UHGV virus genome: UHGV-1717814
Source: a virus
DNA length: 10,525 bases
Direction: 5' to 3' (one strand)
The position numbers were made by a program, and so were the translations under genes. Shown here piece by piece: positions 1-10,221 of this stretch (positions are counted from its first letter, which is position 1; the number at the start of each line of letters is the position of its first letter). Under the pieces are notes generated by a model, which was not told the origin of the DNA, ran no database searches, and saw nothing but the letters and a program-made list of their open reading frames with translations.

Positions 1-45
1 GTTCCACCCTACCTGATATCGAGCCAAACCAGTGCTCTCAGCGTT

Positions 46-122
46 GTGGCATTAGCTCAGTTGGACAGAGCAACCGCCTTCTAAGCGGTTGGTCGCAGGT
101 TCGAATCCTGCATGCCACGCCA
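46..122 (+). tRNA. tRNA-Arg, anticodon UCU (reads AGA)
   Basis: 77 nt. Acceptor stem GTGGCAT (46-52) pairs with ATGCCAC (112-118), discriminator G119, CCA 120-122. D-stem GCTC/GAGC, anticodon stem ACCGC/GCGGT with 7-nt loop CTTCTAA (anticodon TCT at 80-82), T-arm GCAGG-TTCGAAT-CCTGC. Fold worked out by hand, not with a tRNA scanner. Confidence 0.85.
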
Positions 123-165
123 GAATCACGCCTAAGGACCGTGATGCCAGAAGTTCCAGGGGATT

Positions 166-207
166 GGCGGTGATGGTTTCCCTTGAAGGACTATCACCGC
201 CCTTTTT
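166..207 (+). terminator. Putative rho-independent terminator downstream of the tRNA
   Basis: GGCGGTGAT (166-174) pairs with ATCACCGCC (193-201), followed by CTTTTT (202-207). The 18-nt loop is long, so confidence is moderate. Confidence 0.45.
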
Positions 208-325
208 ACAGCAGGACGCCATTGCGATGACTTCATGCTGTAAACCAGTACAGCCACGGAAGGCATAACTCATTGCTTCCAGTTCGCCAGGTTCGCCGGG
301 CATTTTTTTTAGGTGAGAATAGACT

Positions 326-697
326 ATGAGTGACAAAGACATTGAATCTGAAATTCAGGCTAAAGGTTTAGCCGCGCCGCGCGTTACGCCAGACCATATC
401 GAGAGCATTATTGCTCAGGAGGCATATTTCACAGCAGAAGATGGTGTCTTTGGCGTAGCCATAAAAGCGAAACATACTGGCGGAGAGGTAAACTACCAGC
501 CGCACGAATCACTTTCTCTGCTGACATTCTGCGTTCTGGTGCTGCGCAACGGCTTCACCGTCACCGGAGAGAGCGCCTGTGCAAGCCCGGAAAACTTTGA
601 TGCGGAAATTGGTCGGAAGATTGCCCGGCAGAATGCTGTAAACAAAATCTGGATGCTTGAAGGTTACTTGCTGAAGCAGAAGTTAAGCGAGCAATAA
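326..697 (+). CDS. Small phage-associated protein, 123 aa; tentatively N4 gp49 / Sf6 gp66-like family
   Basis: ATG at 326 with GGTGAG 9 nt upstream; TAA at 695-697; followed by a terminator. Family assignment is from memory and not verified. Confidence 0.6.
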   Translation: MSDKDIESEIQAKGLAAPRVTPDHIESIIAQEAYFTAEDGVFGVAIKAKHTGGEVNYQPHESLSLLTFCVLVLRNGFTVTGESACASPENFDAEIGRKIARQNAVNKIWMLEGYLLKQKLSEQ

Positions 698-700
698 CCC

Positions 701-714
701 CGTGACATGTCACA
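701..714. repeat. 14-mer CGTGACATGTCACA, copy 1 (core is the 12-bp perfect palindrome GTGACATGTCAC)
   Basis: Read directly; an identical 14-mer is at 2966-2979. Confidence 0.8.
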
Positions 715-717
715 AAC

Positions 718-787: not shown

Positions 788-2263
788 TTAAGCATAGGGA
801 TAGTAATCTGTAATGGCCTTGCCTTGCTGGTTCTGCTGACCGGGAATTCGCAGACGCTTCGACACCGGGAAAGCAAACGTCAGCAGTAGCGCATCGCCTT
901 TACCCGGCGAACGCCCAAGCCGCTCCTTGATATCTTCCTTCGGTTCGATAACGATTTTACCGTCCACGCGAACTTTGTACTCTGCCGCCGACAGGTCGTC
1001 CGCTGTTTCCTGGTCATCCAGCATGCCGCCCAGCCTCAGCCATGTCTTGCATGCATTGAACATCTCCCCACGCTTGTTAAGCATCTGCGGGTCAGTGGAC
1101 GCACCGCCGAACGGAACAAGTTGCCATGTACGTCCCCAGCCATCACCGATTGACTTCAAACCGGTTCCGTAACCGAAGTCGATGAACACCGCGTCAGCCT
1201 GGTACTGGTCTTCAAAGTCAGCGATACGCTTCGCCATAATCAGATCGTCGGTGGTCTTGTTGCCAGTCCATAGCACCTTACTATGCAACCCCTGCCGCAG
1301 GTATATCACCGCGTCATCAACGCCTGAATATGCCGGGTCAACACCGATTATCACCGGTGCATGTGCCACCTGCGCAGCAGTTACCACCCGTTTCATTGCC
1401 TCGTCAGTAAGACCGGTAGGGATAAACTGCAATTCAGATGCATTAGGGAATATGCCGCGTACACGGATTTTAACGAAGTCGCTGTCTTCCCCGTAGTCAT
1501 CAACCCATTTCTGCAATTGCTGCTTGTTAGTACCTTCCACCGTCCGGCTGTCAATCTGCGCAGTTTTCCAGCGGTGTTTATATTTGCGGAAACATTCACG
1601 GAATCGCCCGGTATTACGCGTCGGGTTTCCGAACGCCACCCAGATAATCTCAGTGTCTTCGTCCGTTAGCGCACCTTCGGCAACTTCCCACACCAGATCC
1701 GCAATGTTCGACGCTTCATCGAATACCACGATAATACGTTTGCGCTCGTTGTGTAGTCCGGCGAATGCCTCAGTGTTGTGCTCAGACCAGGGAATTGCGT
1801 CAGCTCGCCACCGCTTGTCGTGCCCAGGATCATTGCTGTACATCGCGGTAGCGGTACAGGTAAACCAGTCTTTCGTGATAGCAAGGTTGGACCACTTGAT
1901 AATTTCCGGCCAGGTCTTCGTTCGTAGCTGGTTGTCGGTGTTGGCGGTCACCACGACCTTACAATCCTCGCAAGTGGACATGCCCCAGTTGATCAGCATT
2001 GAGATGAATGCGGATTTACCAATACCGTGACCAGAAGCACGTGCCAGCATAAGCGGCTGATAGCGCGTCTCTGGATTCTGCAGATGATCACGTATCTCTC
2101 GGAACGCATCGGCCTGCCACTGACGTGGACCGGTGGCATGTGCCAGTTCAGTACCCTCTTCCCCCCACGGGAACGCATAGAGGGCATAGCCAAGCGGATC
2201 GTGAGTGAACCCTGCAATATCCTCGATCAACTGCTCTTCAGGAGATAACGCTGTATCTGTCAC
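788..2263 (-). CDS. terL: Terminase large subunit (ATPase/nuclease), 491 aa
   Basis: Walker A-like SGHGIGKS near the N-terminus and acidic motifs (VVFDEAS, IIGVDPA) typical of terminase ATPase/nuclease domains. GTG start at 2261-2263 overlaps the terS stop (GTGA coupling). Confidence 0.85.
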   Translation of the reverse strand: MTDTALSPEEQLIEDIAGFTHDPLGYALYAFPWGEEGTELAHATGPRQWQADAFREIRDHLQNPETRYQPLMLARASGHGIGKSAFISMLINWGMSTCEDCKVVVTANTDNQLRTKTWPEIIKWSNLAITKDWFTCTATAMYSNDPGHDKRWRADAIPWSEHNTEAFAGLHNERKRIIVVFDEASNIADLVWEVAEGALTDEDTEIIWVAFGNPTRNTGRFRECFRKYKHRWKTAQIDSRTVEGTNKQQLQKWVDDYGEDSDFVKIRVRGIFPNASELQFIPTGLTDEAMKRVVTAAQVAHAPVIIGVDPAYSGVDDAVIYLRQGLHSKVLWTGNKTTDDLIMAKRIADFEDQYQADAVFIDFGYGTGLKSIGDGWGRTWQLVPFGGASTDPQMLNKRGEMFNACKTWLRLGGMLDDQETADDLSAAEYKVRVDGKIVIEPKEDIKERLGRSPGKGDALLLTFAFPVSKRLRIPGQQNQQGKAITDYYPYA

Positions 2264-2856
2264 TGATTACCATCCTGACGTTCTTTGAGTCGCTTCCTGG
2301 CTGCTGCTATGCGATCAGCAATTGTCACATTCACATTAACATCCAGACGTTCTTTGAACGCGTTGACATCAACATGCTTACCAATCAGTTCTAGGTTCTT
2401 CACCTTGTCAGGCCATTTAATTTTTTTGAGGATTGTCTCTATCGAATCCTCGTTCATGTTCATGATGGTCGATGACAGATCAAAGCCACTAAGCGTAGTG
2501 CGCCAGATTTTCGGCCACTCACGGATTGGTTTAAGGCTCCCATCGTCGTTGAGGATATCGATCACGTCCATCTGGTCGATCTCCACCAAGCGCATGAGAA
2601 CGTAATCAGCACTGACGCGCATTCGTTTGTTGCGCTCCTCCATCAACTCGGCAATCCGTTTTTGAATGCGTTCATCGCGCATCATGACACTGGCTTTAAC
2701 TGCCGCTGTATTTGGGGAGAATCCTGCGTTAATCGCTGCCTGAGTCTGGTTTTCAGGCGTTTTGATGTATGACTGGCAATAAGCCTCCTGCATTGCTGTG
2801 AGCGGCTTAAATTGCGTTGATTTGCGTTTATAGGTTTTAGGTTCAGCAGGCATCAT
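2260..2856 (-). CDS. terS: Terminase small subunit, about 198 aa
   Basis: LTAMQEAYCQSYI...AAINAGFSPNTAAVKAS...RIQKRIAELMEER matches the pattern I recall for phage terminase small subunits. The ORF-track start at 2934 is a TTG extension overlapping a terminator hairpin; I place the start at the tandem ATGs 2854-2856 / 2851-2853, preceded by GGTGG. Confidence 0.8.
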   Translation of the reverse strand: MMPAEPKTYKRKSTQFKPLTAMQEAYCQSYIKTPENQTQAAINAGFSPNTAAVKASVMMRDERIQKRIAELMEERNKRMRVSADYVLMRLVEIDQMDVIDILNDDGSLKPIREWPKIWRTTLSGFDLSSTIMNMNEDSIETILKKIKWPDKVKNLELIGKHVDVNAFKERLDVNVNVTIADRIAAARKRLKERQDGNQ

Positions 2857-2865
2857 AACCACCGT

Positions 2866-2895
2866 GGTAATAGTTACCGTTGTGGTAATAGTACC
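2866..2895. promoter_or_regulatory. Palindrome cluster directly upstream of terS: perfect TTACC-gttgt-GGTAA (2874-2888) flanked by extra GGTAA / TACC half-sites
   Basis: Read directly; same motif as at the immunity region. Lies between the terminator (2899-2925) and the terS start codon. Confidence 0.45.
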
Positions 2896-2898
2896 ATG

Positions 2899-2925
2899 CA
2901 AAATAAAGCCGCCATAGTTGGCGGC
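2899..2925 (-). terminator. Rho-independent terminator upstream of terS (minus-strand sense)
   Basis: GCCGCCA (2908-2914) pairs with TGGCGGC (2919-2925), loop TAGT. On the minus strand the hairpin is followed by TTTATTT (complement of 2901-2907). Confidence 0.55.
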
Positions 2926-2965
2926 AGTATTCAAAACCCGTCAAATTCATCATGCATAATCTACT

Positions 2966-2979
2966 CGTGACATGTCACA
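2966..2979. repeat. 14-mer CGTGACATGTCACA, copy 2
   Basis: Identical to 701-714. Overlaps the stop codon of the 2975-3322 ORF and lies about 40 nt upstream (in transcription sense) of the terS-proximal terminator. Confidence 0.8.
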
Positions 2980-3322
2980 CTATTAATTTCGTTTCATGCC
3001 AGCCTTTAGTCACCCAGCATTGCGAGTCACCATTACACGGGCATGAATTAACTGGAACTCTCTCGCCGCACTTACCGCAACGTTTTCTGCTGATCGATTT
3101 TATACGCCCGCGCACACGTGCATCATCCTGGCGGATCAGCAGCGCGATGTACTCGGCCATTTCATAGGGATCGCGACCAGGGCGCCGGGCGGCGCAGTTC
3201 CGCGCCAGCATTTCCTGCTCCTGCTTATCCAGCACCAGTTCAATTTTGCGCTCACCGGCGGCGGACTGCCGAGCGCGCTGCGCGGCTTTGCGTTCTGCGG
3301 GGGATTTAGCCACGAATCGCAC
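2975..3322 (-). CDS. Hypothetical basic protein (about 112-115 aa) with C-terminal Cys cluster CGKCG...CPCNGDSQC; possible DNA-binding regulator
   Basis: Long ORF on the operon strand. Start is uncertain: GTG at 3320-3322 or GTG at 3311-3313, which has GGAG 8 nt upstream. Function is inferred only from composition and position. Confidence 0.4.
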   Translation of the reverse strand: MRFVAKSPAERKAAQRARQSAAGERKIELVLDKQEQEMLARNCAARRPGRDPYEMAEYIALLIRQDDARVRGRIKSISRKRCGKCGERVPVNSCPCNGDSQCWVTKGWHETKLIV

Positions 3323-6691: not shown

Positions 6692-7036
6692 TCAGAAATC
6701 TTCGATGTTCCAGCCACCACCTGCTTTCTTTGGTTTAACCGTTACCCCGATGATTCGGAACGGATACTGATCTGCGGCGACTTTGGTTTTCACCCTGGCG
6801 TCGTCGGTCCAGAAACCTTTCACTTCGTGCAGTTCCATCTCGCCGGTGGCGAGCATCACAGCGAAATCTGGCGTATAGAACGTGTTATTAGCTAACCGCA
6901 GCTTGATACCCTCGAATCGATACCAGGCGATTTCCCCTGCACGTTTACGCTGCTCAAGGTGCTGGCAATACGCAGATTCTGTTTTGTTCATCTGGCCTGT
7001 TTTGAGTCGACCAAGAGCCTGCATCTGTTTTCTCAT
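6692..7036 (-). CDS. Small PD-(D/E)xK-like nuclease-fold protein, 114 aa (DUF1064-like)
   Basis: Segment YTPDFAVMLATGEMELHEVKG contains a PD...(E)xK arrangement. ATG at 7034-7036 with GAGGT 5 nt upstream. Family assignment from memory. Confidence 0.6.
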   Translation of the reverse strand: MRKQMQALGRLKTGQMNKTESAYCQHLEQRKRAGEIAWYRFEGIKLRLANNTFYTPDFAVMLATGEMELHEVKGFWTDDARVKTKVAADQYPFRIIGVTVKPKKAGGGWNIEDF

Positions 7037-7039
7037 GAT

Positions 7040-7116
7040 TTACCTCTGAGGTAATTAAAAACCACATAAGACACGAAATCAATAGGGTTTAGAATATTTT
7101 ATTACCTGATGGGTAA
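7040..7116 (-). promoter_or_regulatory. Operator-flanked promoter driving the accessory operon (minus strand)
   Basis: Perfect TTACC-N5-GGTAA at 7040-7054 and 7102-7116. Between them, on the minus strand: -35 TTGATT (7077-7082), 17-nt spacer, -10 TTTAAT (7054-7059). Same geometry as the PL-like region, including a 19-nt gap between the upstream operator and the -35. Confidence 0.5.
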
Positions 7117-9047: not shown

Positions 9048-9062
9048 TTACCTTTGAGGTAC
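9048..9062. promoter_or_regulatory. Near-perfect operator-like palindrome TTACC-tttga-GGTAC
   Basis: One mismatch in the right half-site; lies just downstream of the cro-proximal terminator. Confidence 0.3.
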
Positions 9063-9117: not shown

Positions 9118-9348
9118 TCATGAGTAGAAGAAGTATGCCAGTTCTGCTTTTGAGCACAGCCATTGTCTTGATTTACAGGCTTTAAAAAGCCCATCCATCA
9201 ATACCTTACCTGGCATTTTGCGCTTACCTGTTAAGTGAGTCTGGATATAGTGACTCGTCGTTCCGGCTTCCTGTGCGAAGGCTTCACGCTCATCCGGAGT
9301 AAGTGCAAGCCAGTGCTTTTTGAAATCGAAATGTCCGTTATCGCTCAT
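9118..9348 (-). CDS. Cro-like HTH regulator, 76 aa (YdaS-like)
   Basis: Divergent from the repressor gene across an operator-rich gap. Segment FAQEAGTTSHYIQTHLTGKRKMP resembles the YdaS/Cro-type HTH as I recall it. Confidence 0.65.
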   Translation of the reverse strand: MSDNGHFDFKKHWLALTPDEREAFAQEAGTTSHYIQTHLTGKRKMPGKVLMDGLFKACKSRQWLCSKAELAYFFYS

Positions 9349-9384: not shown

Positions 9385-9447
9385 TCACCTATAAGGTAAC
9401 AAAAATCAAGGATAGTTACCCATGAGGTGCATTTACCTGTTGGGTAA
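9385..9447. promoter_or_regulatory. Tripartite OR-like operator region with divergent promoters
   Basis: TCACC-tataa-GGTAA (9385-9399), TTACC-catga-GGTGC (9416-9430), perfect TTACC-tgttg-GGTAA (9433-9447). Candidate minus-strand promoter for the Cro-like gene: TTGATT, 17 nt, GAATAT, overlapping the first two sites. Confidence 0.6.
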
Positions 9448-9502: not shown

Positions 9503-10087
9503 ATGAAAAGTATCCAGGACGTCCGCAGGCAAAATCTCAACGACTTGATCGACCGTGAATTCAATGGTGTTCAGACGCGGATGGCTGAAAAACTTGGAAC
9601 TCAGGCAAATCTGGTAAACCGCTGGGCTCTTGGCAAGAAGGTTATCGGCGACCAGGTTGCGCGAAAAATTGAAGCTGCCGCCAATAAACCCCGTAACTGG
9701 CTTGATATCGATCGCTCGCTTTCTCAGGAAGGTTTTCAGCCTGTCGGCCCGAGTGATATAGGTCAGCTGGCTGCTCACAACCTGGAACGCTGGATGAGCG
9801 AAAGCCGCGACCTTTCAACGCAGGGAAAACTACACCGCGCATCCGGCGTCGCCCAGGTGACAATCAGCCGCCTGTTAAACAATGAGGTCAGCGTTTCCAT
9901 TTCCACCCTGGAGAATGTTGCATCCGCATTCGGGCGTCATGGCTATGAATTACTGATTCACCCGCACGACCCTGCGACTATCAACTATGACCGCTCGCGC
10001 TACGCATTGTTACCCGAAACCGAGAAAGCAAAGATCGAAAGTTACATTGAATTTGTCATCAACCAGAACGAAAAAAACAAACAATAA
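9503..10087 (+). CDS. Immunity repressor candidate, 194 aa, with two XRE-type HTH segments and no recognisable S24 autocleavage domain
   Basis: HTH-like segments QTRMAEKLGTQANLVNRWALGKK and GKLHRASGVAQVTISRLLNNEVSVSISTLENVASAF. Divergent from the Cro-like gene and followed by a terminator. Absence of the peptidase domain judged by eye and by the short length. Confidence 0.7.
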   Translation: MKSIQDVRRQNLNDLIDREFNGVQTRMAEKLGTQANLVNRWALGKKVIGDQVARKIEAAANKPRNWLDIDRSLSQEGFQPVGPSDIGQLAAHNLERWMSESRDLSTQGKLHRASGVAQVTISRLLNNEVSVSISTLENVASAFGRHGYELLIHPHDPATINYDRSRYALLPETEKAKIESYIEFVINQNEKNKQ

Positions 10088-10107: not shown

Positions 10108-10133
10108 AAGCCGCCTTATGGCGGCTTTTTTAT
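10108..10133 (+). terminator. Rho-independent terminator after the repressor gene
   Basis: AAGCCGCC (10108-10115), loop TTAT, GGCGGCTT (10120-10127), then T-run to 10133. Confidence 0.6.
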
Positions 10134-10144
10134 TGCCTATTCGA

Positions 10145-10221
10145 TTACCTAACGGGTAATTTTTTTAACTCATATCTATTGACATCAAACCATATACGCA
10201 TAATTATTACCTCAACGGTAA
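10145..10221 (+). promoter_or_regulatory. PL-like promoter flanked by two operators
   Basis: Perfect TTACC-taacg-GGTAA (10145-10159) and TTACC-tcaac-GGTAA (10207-10221). Between them: -35 TTGACA (10179-10184), 17-nt spacer, -10 AATTAT (10202-10207). Confidence 0.55.

Follow-up and report, generated by a model that had tools for sequence, protein, structure and literature searches.

In phage lambda, the operators are confined to two regions and the late genes are driven via N and Q antitermination. In phage P1 and mycobacteriophage L5, one repressor is served by many genome-wide sites in short intergenic gaps (the C1 operators and the gp71 'stoperators', respectively) and directly silences many units; the P1 and L5 sites are asymmetric, and those of L5 are orientation-dependent and block elongation. 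The closest described arrangement is that of phage epsilon15, whose RefSeq record (NC_004775.2) holds a 'rho-independent terminator' (39646-39672), followed by attaccaaaacggtaa (12..27), annotated protein_bind 'repressor' (an annotation that is itself a prediction), and directly after it terS (from 47). A terminator and a repressor operator before terS are thus already annotated in epsilon15. The record also marks copies of this site around the leftward operon, ahead of the portal operon, in the ant/tailspike region and after the replication genes. Salmonella phage SPC32H possesses a Rep-Ant switch (PDB 5D50/5D4Z), reportedly the subject of papers by Kim and Ryu in 2013 and Kim et al. in 2016 (cited via PMC9638917 and PMC7380047). 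The SPC32H Rep is reported to bind palindromic sites as a tetramer (PMC9638917).

The stretch analysed here, referred to as the window, comprises 10,525 nucleotides of the UHGV virus genome UHGV-1717814 and stems from a temperate podophage of the phiV10/epsilon15 type (Uetakevirus). The 800 bases around the feature under study share 91-99% identity with Escherichia phages of the phiV10/TL-2011b group and, over part of the stretch, 81-88% identity with epsilon15 relatives in Salmonella, Enterobacter and Klebsiella, and the TerS protein is 100% identical to TerS of both phiV10 and TL-2011b. With the repressor gene on the plus strand, the minus strand carries every gene from the right end of the window to terL, and the gene order is repressor, cro-like gene (9118-9348), replication genes, small early genes, regulator, terS, terL, a convergent small gene and tRNA-Arg, the last being the sole Rfam match above threshold. 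The genes and the distal border on which the argument depends are as follows.

9503-10087, plus strand: prophage repressor Rep, 194 aa, the presumed operator binder (HTH_3, E = 1.2e-9)
2975-3322, minus strand: 'transcriptional regulator' of 112-115 aa, last gene of the early-right operon (phrog_536, E = 5.5e-54)
2260-2856, minus strand: terS, small terminase subunit, 198 aa (Pfam Terminase_2, E = 1e-29; ATG at 2856)
788-2263, minus strand: terL, large terminase subunit (open reading frame list)
718-737, both strands: bidirectional terminator 3' of terL (terminator scan)

The feature is the border of the early-right operon and the terS-terL packaging unit, and terS-terL forms a short unit of its own with terminators at both borders. 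An initial annotation of this border had described, on the minus strand, a hairpin with T-run, a run of palindromes at 2895-2866 and the terS ATG at 2856, and these coordinates are exact. Two elements lie between the regulator gene and the palindromes.

2900-2925, minus strand: intrinsic terminator with stem GCCGCCA (2925-2919), loop ACTA, stem TGGCGGC (2914-2908) and T-run TTTATTTT (2907-2900) (scan, fold, conservation)
2931-2951, minus strand: non-coding remnant, the 3' end of a 77-aa gene (GATGAATTTGACGGGTTTTGA, translated DEFDGF-stop; comparison with L009-type loci)

The terminator scan found a stem of 7 pairs, 6 of them G-C, and the hairpin folds with -13.8 kcal/mol (z = -3.9; 0/200 shuffles as good), 50 nt past the stop of the upstream regulator gene. 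Since terminator-like sites in the window number 13 vs 10.7 expected and show no excess over chance, the argument for this hairpin draws on its quality, on its location past a stop codon and on its retention among relatives. We compared the terS-upstream region of 80 related loci, which gave 28 distinct sequences. The terminator is present in 23/28 of these variants, in which the sole change is A/G beside the loop, and is missing in the other five, all of which have a different upstream gene; compensatory changes in the stem do not occur, so that the conservation may be one of sequence as much as of structure. The epsilon15 orthologue is the 'rho-independent terminator' of the RefSeq record. 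Fold, 7-bp stem, TTTATTTT and conservation bear out the earlier view of the hairpin as a terminator-type structure, and 2925-2900 is a conserved intrinsic terminator that, as predicted from sequence, closes the early-right operon. A sub-threshold Rfam match to rseX at this place (27 vs 50 bits, E about 0.1) is due to terminator similarity. Part of the sequence between the regulator gene and the hairpin is what is left of a gene still carried by L009-type sister prophages: in these, the 77-aa gene is intact between the regulator gene and the terminator and ends in ...DESFYDEFDGL-stop.

A regulator gene closing the early region, then an intrinsic terminator and co-directional late genes, is an order shared with the Q/pR'/tR' region of lambda, and the initial annotation had pointed out that a lambdoid phage would place its Q-dependent late control here. 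However, the window has no Q homologue and no convincing promoter upstream of the hairpin, where the only match is a weak 9/12 site (GTGACA-18-CATGAT) that overlaps the gene end and the gene remnant. That no Q-like gene is present in the window had already been noted, and searches with the upstream gene in Pfam, PHROG and NCBIfam returned none. A Q gene is likewise not annotated in phiV10, epsilon15, SPC32H or Tyrion, while the lambdoid control phiES15 has one. The late genes are here split into units with control regions of their own, terS-terL being self-contained, and the terminator is missing in some lineages. A lambda-type arrangement, with a constitutive promoter before the terminator and a single late operon, was not found, and the comparison with Q-dependent late control is not supported for this locus.

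Downstream of the hairpin, an unbiased count of inverted repeats (5-bp arms, spacers 0-8) ranks TTACC-N5-GGTAA first among all inverted repeats of the window, with 6 exact copies; the number rises to 9, vs 0.18 expected, when up to 1 mismatch is allowed. The same motif is top-ranked in phiV10, epsilon15, SPC32H, Tyrion and 65FD, each of which has 8-11 exact copies; in phiES15, the lambdoid control, it is not. The complete phiV10 genome contains 14 copies (up to 1 mismatch) vs 0.67 expected, and 14/14 lie between annotated genes. Related genomes have 14-18 copies at the heads of most transcription units, spread over about nine intergenic regions, which include the starts of the units for packaging, portal, tail fibre, lysis and integrase. 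No strand is assigned to the palindromic sites of the window, which are listed here.

2874-2888: O1, TTACC-ACAAC-GGTAA, a perfect motif copy (motif scan, epsilon15 orthologue)
2856-2870: candidate O2, TTACC-ACGGT-GGTTA, 1 mismatch, 18 bp from O1 (motif scan)
7102-7116 and 7040-7054: two operators past a weak hairpin and T7 run 3' of the replication-P gene, before an ATG at 7036
9048-9062: one operator (1 mismatch), 14 nt past the stem of terminator 9096-9077, which follows the cro-like gene
9433-9447 (perfect), 9416-9430 (2 mismatches) and 9385-9399 (1 mismatch): three operators in the repressor/cro-like intergenic region (motif scan)
10145-10159 and 10207-10221: two operators flanking the leftward promoter (motif scan)

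The copies in the immunity region are placed as in the CI/Cro system of lambda, with several adjacent short palindromes between divergent repressor and cro-like genes, some overlapping the -35/spacer of one promoter and others the -10/+1 of another. The operator at 9385-9399 lies within a rightward promoter-like site, TTGTTA-17-TATTAT (9402-9374, minus strand), which reads towards the cro-like gene. The best promoter-like site of the window is the leftward promoter TTGACA-17-AATTAT (10179-10207, plus strand), and the operator at 10207-10221 begins on the last base of its -10 hexamer. The presence of copies both at the immunity-region promoters and at the heads of transcription units is the distribution of a repressor operator. 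In contrast to lambda, one operator type is here spread over about nine intergenic regions, and in contrast to the P1 and L5 sites, the palindrome is symmetric and some of its copies lie over promoter cores.

A second regularity concerns the spacing to terminators. Operators lie 14-19 nt past a terminator stem at terS, the cro-like gene and the repressor gene, and also past the weaker hairpin after the replication genes. The repressor gene is followed by a terminator at 10108-10127, downstream of which lie the operators at 10145-10221, and the phiV10 record has a terminator annotated at the position equivalent to the replication-P hairpin (35038-35057). The pairing seen at terS (18 bp) recurs between the repressor and cro-like genes, where operators are spaced 17 bp. 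It seems that a terminator shuts each transcription unit and that the repressor governs its reopening. The recurrence of a terminator followed by an operator/promoter-like module favours re-initiation over antitermination. With 14-18 repressor sites per genome, reaching beyond the two immunity-region clusters, and many of them directly past terminators, each unit appears to be insulated and silenced separately.

At terS, the arms of O1 (TTACC and GGTAA) are constant among the 28 distinct upstream variants and the 5-nt spacer is variable, as is typical of DNA palindromes bound by protein. The orthologous site in epsilon15 is attaccaaaacggtaa, directly before terS, with the spacer AAAAC instead of ACAAC and different flanks. 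The epsilon15 record lists 8 sites in total and no promoter; our scan of this genome, allowing up to 1 mismatch, gives 15, of which three separate the repressor gene from the cro-like gene and one is a second copy over the terS start. O2 spans the Shine-Dalgarno sequence GGTGG (2863-2859) and the A of the terS ATG. Its counterpart in epsilon15 and 65FD reads TTACT-TCGGT-GGTAA, with the one mismatch in the opposite arm, and the site is degenerate in SPC32H and in the metagenomic lineage L082. It is plausible that O2 acts as an auxiliary operator, although its degeneration in some relatives means that it may not be a real site. An 11-nt direct repeat, GTGGTAATAGT (plus-strand reading), is present in two copies 18 nt apart.

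In the palindrome cluster of the initial annotation, only the central TTACC-N5-GGTAA is far above chance. The outer GGTAC arm does not persist as a palindrome partner: it reads GGTAC, GTTAC, GATAG, GTTAG or GGTAT among the 28 variants and, judging from these, is more readily assigned to a conserved TGnTAnTAT element than to an operator half-site. A DNA operator and an RNA hairpin had both been proposed for the cluster, and the 9 vs 0.18 copies, the sites in the immunity region and the 'repressor' annotation in epsilon15 favour the operator. We infer that the core of the terS palindrome is an operator of the epsilon15/SPC32H Rep type, not specific to terS, which Rep is predicted to bind.

Rep of the window matches the structure of the SPC32H repressor (PDB 5D50, E = 4e-42 over residues 1-190). 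The operator motif is also found in the SPC32H genome, at matching places of which position 12, upstream of terS, is one; by sequence, the two systems are alike in Rep homologue and operator positions, with the difference that the antirepressor gene lies outside the window here. All Uetakevirus genomes compared share one repressor family and one motif, so that only the lambdoid control is informative on the co-variation of operator and repressor. Cro-like proteins usually share operators with the repressor, and the binder during lytic growth could be Cro instead of Rep.

The initial annotation had stated that no promoter is obvious between terminator and terS. We show here that a conserved element occupies this gap, between the T-run and terS.

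2888-2896, minus strand: probable extended -10 promoter element TG-g-TACTAT, with TG (2896-2895), one base, and the hexamer TACTAT (2893-2888) (sequence, conservation)

The pattern TG.TA.TAT is constant in 28/28 upstream variants, including the five lineages without the terminator, in which conservation starts exactly at TG and the operator is also kept. In the window (both strands), TGNTANNAT has a single match, at 2896-2888, vs about 5 expected, and the flanks of the other operator copies are unrelated to TGnTAnTAT. The pattern agrees with the consensus TGnTATAAT in T at -12, A at -11 and T at -7. The TACTAT hexamer ends at base 1 of O1, in the same register as the leftward promoter and its operator. 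It matches the -10 consensus at 4/6 positions and has no -35 element, and a two-hexamer sigma-70 scan gave no site between terminator and terS. Because TGnTAnTAT is both conserved and unique in the window, we place a probable promoter between terminator and terS, with a predicted start near 2881. The promoter reading is post hoc, and TGnTAnTAT might be conserved for another reason. In the paper on vB_EcoP_ZX5, promoters were predicted by web tool only and the site upstream of terS is not discussed.

We consider it likely that terS-terL is controlled by the combination of the terminator, a weak Rep-repressible extended -10 promoter and the operators. The terminator at 2925-2900 would halt transcripts leaving the early-right operon. 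Directly past it, a weak promoter without -35 and reliant on the extended -10 (2896-2888) would start transcription near 2881; O1 (2888-2874) would cover the start region of this promoter, and O2 (2870-2856) the ribosome-binding site and the start codon. In the lysogen, Rep on O1, and possibly on O2, would keep the packaging genes silent, and the bound Rep would block initiation as well as polymerase leaking through the terminator. Upon inactivation of Rep, or in a fresh infection, host RNA polymerase would initiate at this promoter and antitermination would be unnecessary. Rep binding at O1/O2, the activity of the -10 element and the position of the transcription start are the parts of the model that we infer. 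The locus is the expected early/packaging junction of a well-sampled phage genus, and little changes in this respect; the packaging genes probably have a repressor-controlled promoter of their own and need not depend on antitermination. This is relevant to the engineering of phiV10-type reporter phages and to the reading of prophage transcriptomes.

The main alternative is that no working promoter exists past the hairpin and that terS-terL is made only by read-through, as the initial annotation had thought probable. The upstream regulator of 112 aa might then help via a palindrome at its own stop codon, and the operators would be a roadblock in the lysogen only.

2967-2978, no strand assigned: perfect 12-bp palindrome GTGACATGTCAC over the TGA stop of the regulator gene (palindrome search)

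The genes from the immunity region to terL are co-directional with terminators interspersed, a conserved regulator gene (phrog_536) closes the early operon, and the two-hexamer promoter scan is empty downstream of the hairpin, all of which would suit control by read-through. In addition, GTGAC-N2-GTCAC lies over the regulator stop codon in three unrelated phage groups, and other epsilon15-like copies abut terminators. However, the five lineages that have no terminator before terS retain TGnTAnTAT and the operators, and the palindrome of L009-type prophages is set apart from the terminator by an entire gene. Yersinia P2-like phages with the same regulator and palindrome have an Ogr-like late regulator of their own, the annotations of phiV10 and epsilon15 list neither a Q nor an N homologue, and the structure model of the regulator yields no informative fold match. 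The other terminators of the early region each precede operator and promoter-like modules, which suggests re-initiation. The need for read-through found no positive evidence, and we regard this reading as unlikely.

It is also conceivable, though we think it rather doubtful, that the operators are promoter-less and serve as pure roadblocks, stopping polymerase that escapes the terminator in the manner of the L5 'stoperators'. The distance of 14-19 nt between terminator stem and operator at four places of the window, and the 14-18 copies per genome that head most units, would be expected of such a system. At both immunity-region promoters, however, the operators overlap core elements, as in classical initiation control, and the TGnTAnTAT beside O1 is absent from the general operator flank. 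A roadblock is compatible with, and not opposed to, the repressible promoter that we favour, in which bound Rep would block leaking polymerase as well.

Control at the level of the RNA leader is very improbable. Here, the transcribed palindromes would hide the ribosome-binding site and thereby control translation of terS, and indeed the minimum-energy fold of the read-through RNA pairs AUUACC (2889-2884) with the Shine-Dalgarno sequence GGUGGU, a pairing present in 18/18 aligned variants. On its own, however, the leader does not fold better than shuffled sequences (z = -0.84, 40/200 as good, and z = -0.52), compensatory pairs number 0/15 (covariation term -0.43), and the leader gave no Rfam match above threshold. 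A long fold over 2945-2845 reaches z = -5.5, and its signal comes from the terminator. Constant arms around a variable spacer are the signature of a protein-bound DNA palindrome, and the 5-bp-stem RNA hairpin proposed earlier is not upheld by the compensatory-pair count or by the z values of the leader. Extremely improbable is a TerS-binding packaging site of the pac/cosB kind, as in lambda cosB or SPP1 pac: repeated short motifs immediately upstream of terS would fit, but such a site should be unique, and we rejected it because the 15-bp motif occurs 14-18 times per genome, also between the repressor and cro-like genes, and is absent near terS of phiES15, whose TerS belongs to the same family (60% identity).

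The starts of the phiV10 and Tyrion GenBank records, which fall inside GTGACATGTCAC, were considered as a cos/pac cut and dismissed: the phiV10 record opens at the base following the stop codon of the last gene, a choice of its annotators, and its start is therefore uninformative on packaging.

The palindrome over the regulator stop codon is the only element of the locus that possibly leads to something new. The regulator has homologues in epsilon15 (gp49), phiV10 (p55) and N15 (gp46) and is annotated 'transcriptional regulator' in phiV10, epsilon15 and TL-2011b. It combines an arginine-rich N-terminus with a C-terminal CxxC...CxC, and neither Pfam nor NCBIfam gave a match to the protein. Its core is possibly ribbon-helix-helix-like, a fold class that is a guess; the AlphaFold model has a mean pLDDT of 67.5, and the best Foldseek match in the PDB had an E-value no lower than 1.9. 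Among 80 epsilon15-like, 49 N15-like and 53 Yersinia P2-like loci, nearly all have a GTGAC-N2-GTCAC palindrome over the stop codon of the regulator family; the latter two sets were collected with the N15 and Yersinia proteins as queries, as the first search gave only close relatives. These loci belong to three unrelated groups, namely epsilon15-like podophages, N15-like siphophages and Yersinia P2-like myophages. It would be a long shot to propose that the regulator and GTGAC-N2-GTCAC form an undescribed trans/cis pair that sets transcription across terminators, including the one before terS. If the regulator binds the palindrome, as DNA or as nascent RNA, this would be a new kind of phage termination/antitermination control, and such a pair would partly vindicate the read-through idea. 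The SPC32H genome holds four exact copies of the 10-bp core vs 0.07 expected, all at the ends of transcription units, and in the window a second copy of GTGACATGTCAC, at 703-712, directly adjoins the terminator that follows terL. Each phage group has its own usual central dinucleotide (mainly AT, TG and GC). The last sense codon keeps G in its third position even where the encoded amino acid differs, and right past the palindrome the sequence is unrelated among loci. In four Yersinia loci, the regulator gene ends earlier and the palindrome is retained.

The end of the regulator gene, which closes the early-right operon on the minus strand, is marked by a palindrome that is repeated at the ends of transcription units and adjoins terminators there. 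The following elements of the window are relevant here:

2967-2978: palindrome GTGACATGTCAC, overlapping the stop codon with which the 112-aa regulator gene ends
703-712: second copy of the palindrome GTGACATGTCAC
2931-2951: GATGAATTTGACGGGTTTTGA, 3'-terminal remnant of a 77-aa gene whose product ends in ...DESFYDEFDGL*

SPC32H (L085) carries four exact copies of the palindrome, at 2146, 19635, 26697 and 38630, where 0.07 would be expected. Among loci L093-L274, the stop codon of homologous regulator genes was overlapped by GTGAC-N2-GTCAC in nearly all epsilon15-like (80), N15-like (49) and Yersinia P2-like (53) loci. Each phage group has its own typical central dinucleotide, and the flanking sequence differs between the groups directly past the end of the palindrome.

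The interval between the regulator gene and terS, the gene for the small terminase subunit, is variable. In sister prophages (L009 type) the 77-aa gene is intact and separates the regulator gene from the intrinsic terminator; the lineage of the window has a deletion here, with the remnant at 2931-2951. In L063, L065, L066, L078 and L079 the regulator gene is followed by a 119-aa gene ahead of terS, and the terminator is missing; the operator, the presumed repressor-binding site TTACC-N5-GGTAA, and the TGnTAnTAT element, a probable extended -10, are still kept in these relatives. One Klebsiella phage record (L089, 3911-4240) lists the product of the 119-aa gene as hypothetical and adds the remark 'DNA polymerase V subunit UmuD'. 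The longest terS open reading frame (2260-2934, minus strand) starts with TTG at 2934 and spans the terminator and the operators, and the phiV10 record annotates terS in this longest form (41..715). The credible start is the ATG at 2856, with GGTGG ahead of it. An Rfam match to rseX, an Hfq-binding sRNA, stays below the gathering threshold (2901-2986, minus strand; 27 bits vs 50, E about 0.1). It reaches from the last part of the regulator gene into the terminator, whose hairpin and U-run account for most of the alignment.

CCATAT(A/G)TGGTT is the third palindrome that recurs, with six matches in phiV10 (L083) vs 0.34 expected. Its phiV10 sites are:

3307: CCATAT(A/G)TGGTT
20920: CCATAT(A/G)TGGTT
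24736: CCATAT(A/G)TGGTT
33132: CCATAT(A/G)TGGTT

Equivalents of these sites are present in epsilon15, SPC32H, Tyrion and 65FD. Repressor operators precede the palindrome by 35-50 nt, and downstream of it come the portal operon, the tail-fibre gene, the lysis cassette and p42. In the three late units a -10-like hexamer begins 7 nt beyond the palindrome, as in TTAACC-17-TATAAT of the lysis unit. The palindrome may mark late promoters or be the site of a second regulator. The region upstream of terS has no CCATAT(A/G)TGGTT.

In the divergent region of phiV10 between the small gene p24 and the tail-fibre gene, which falls outside the window, a LexA-box-like sequence, CTGTATAAATACACAG (about 20835-20855), lies upstream of the operator at 20877. 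The p24 product is a homologue of epsilon15 gp19, and the gene takes the same position as the SPC32H ant gene; the nearby LexA-box-like site would fit an antirepressor under SOS control. Downstream of p24 (20484-20524), an operator copy, TTACCTTTGCGGTAA, sits inside a larger, perfect inverted repeat with 13-bp arms, GGAGTGCTTATAT...ATATAAGCACTCC. No such larger palindrome around the operator copy was found at the equivalent place in Tyrion.

The interval between terL, the gene for the large terminase subunit, and the portal operon contains two features on the strand opposite to terL:

46-122, plus strand: phage-borne tRNA-Arg (anticodon TCT)
326-697, plus strand: N4 gp49/Sf6 gp66-family gene

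Both are arranged in SPC32H, phiV10 and TL-2011b as in the window.
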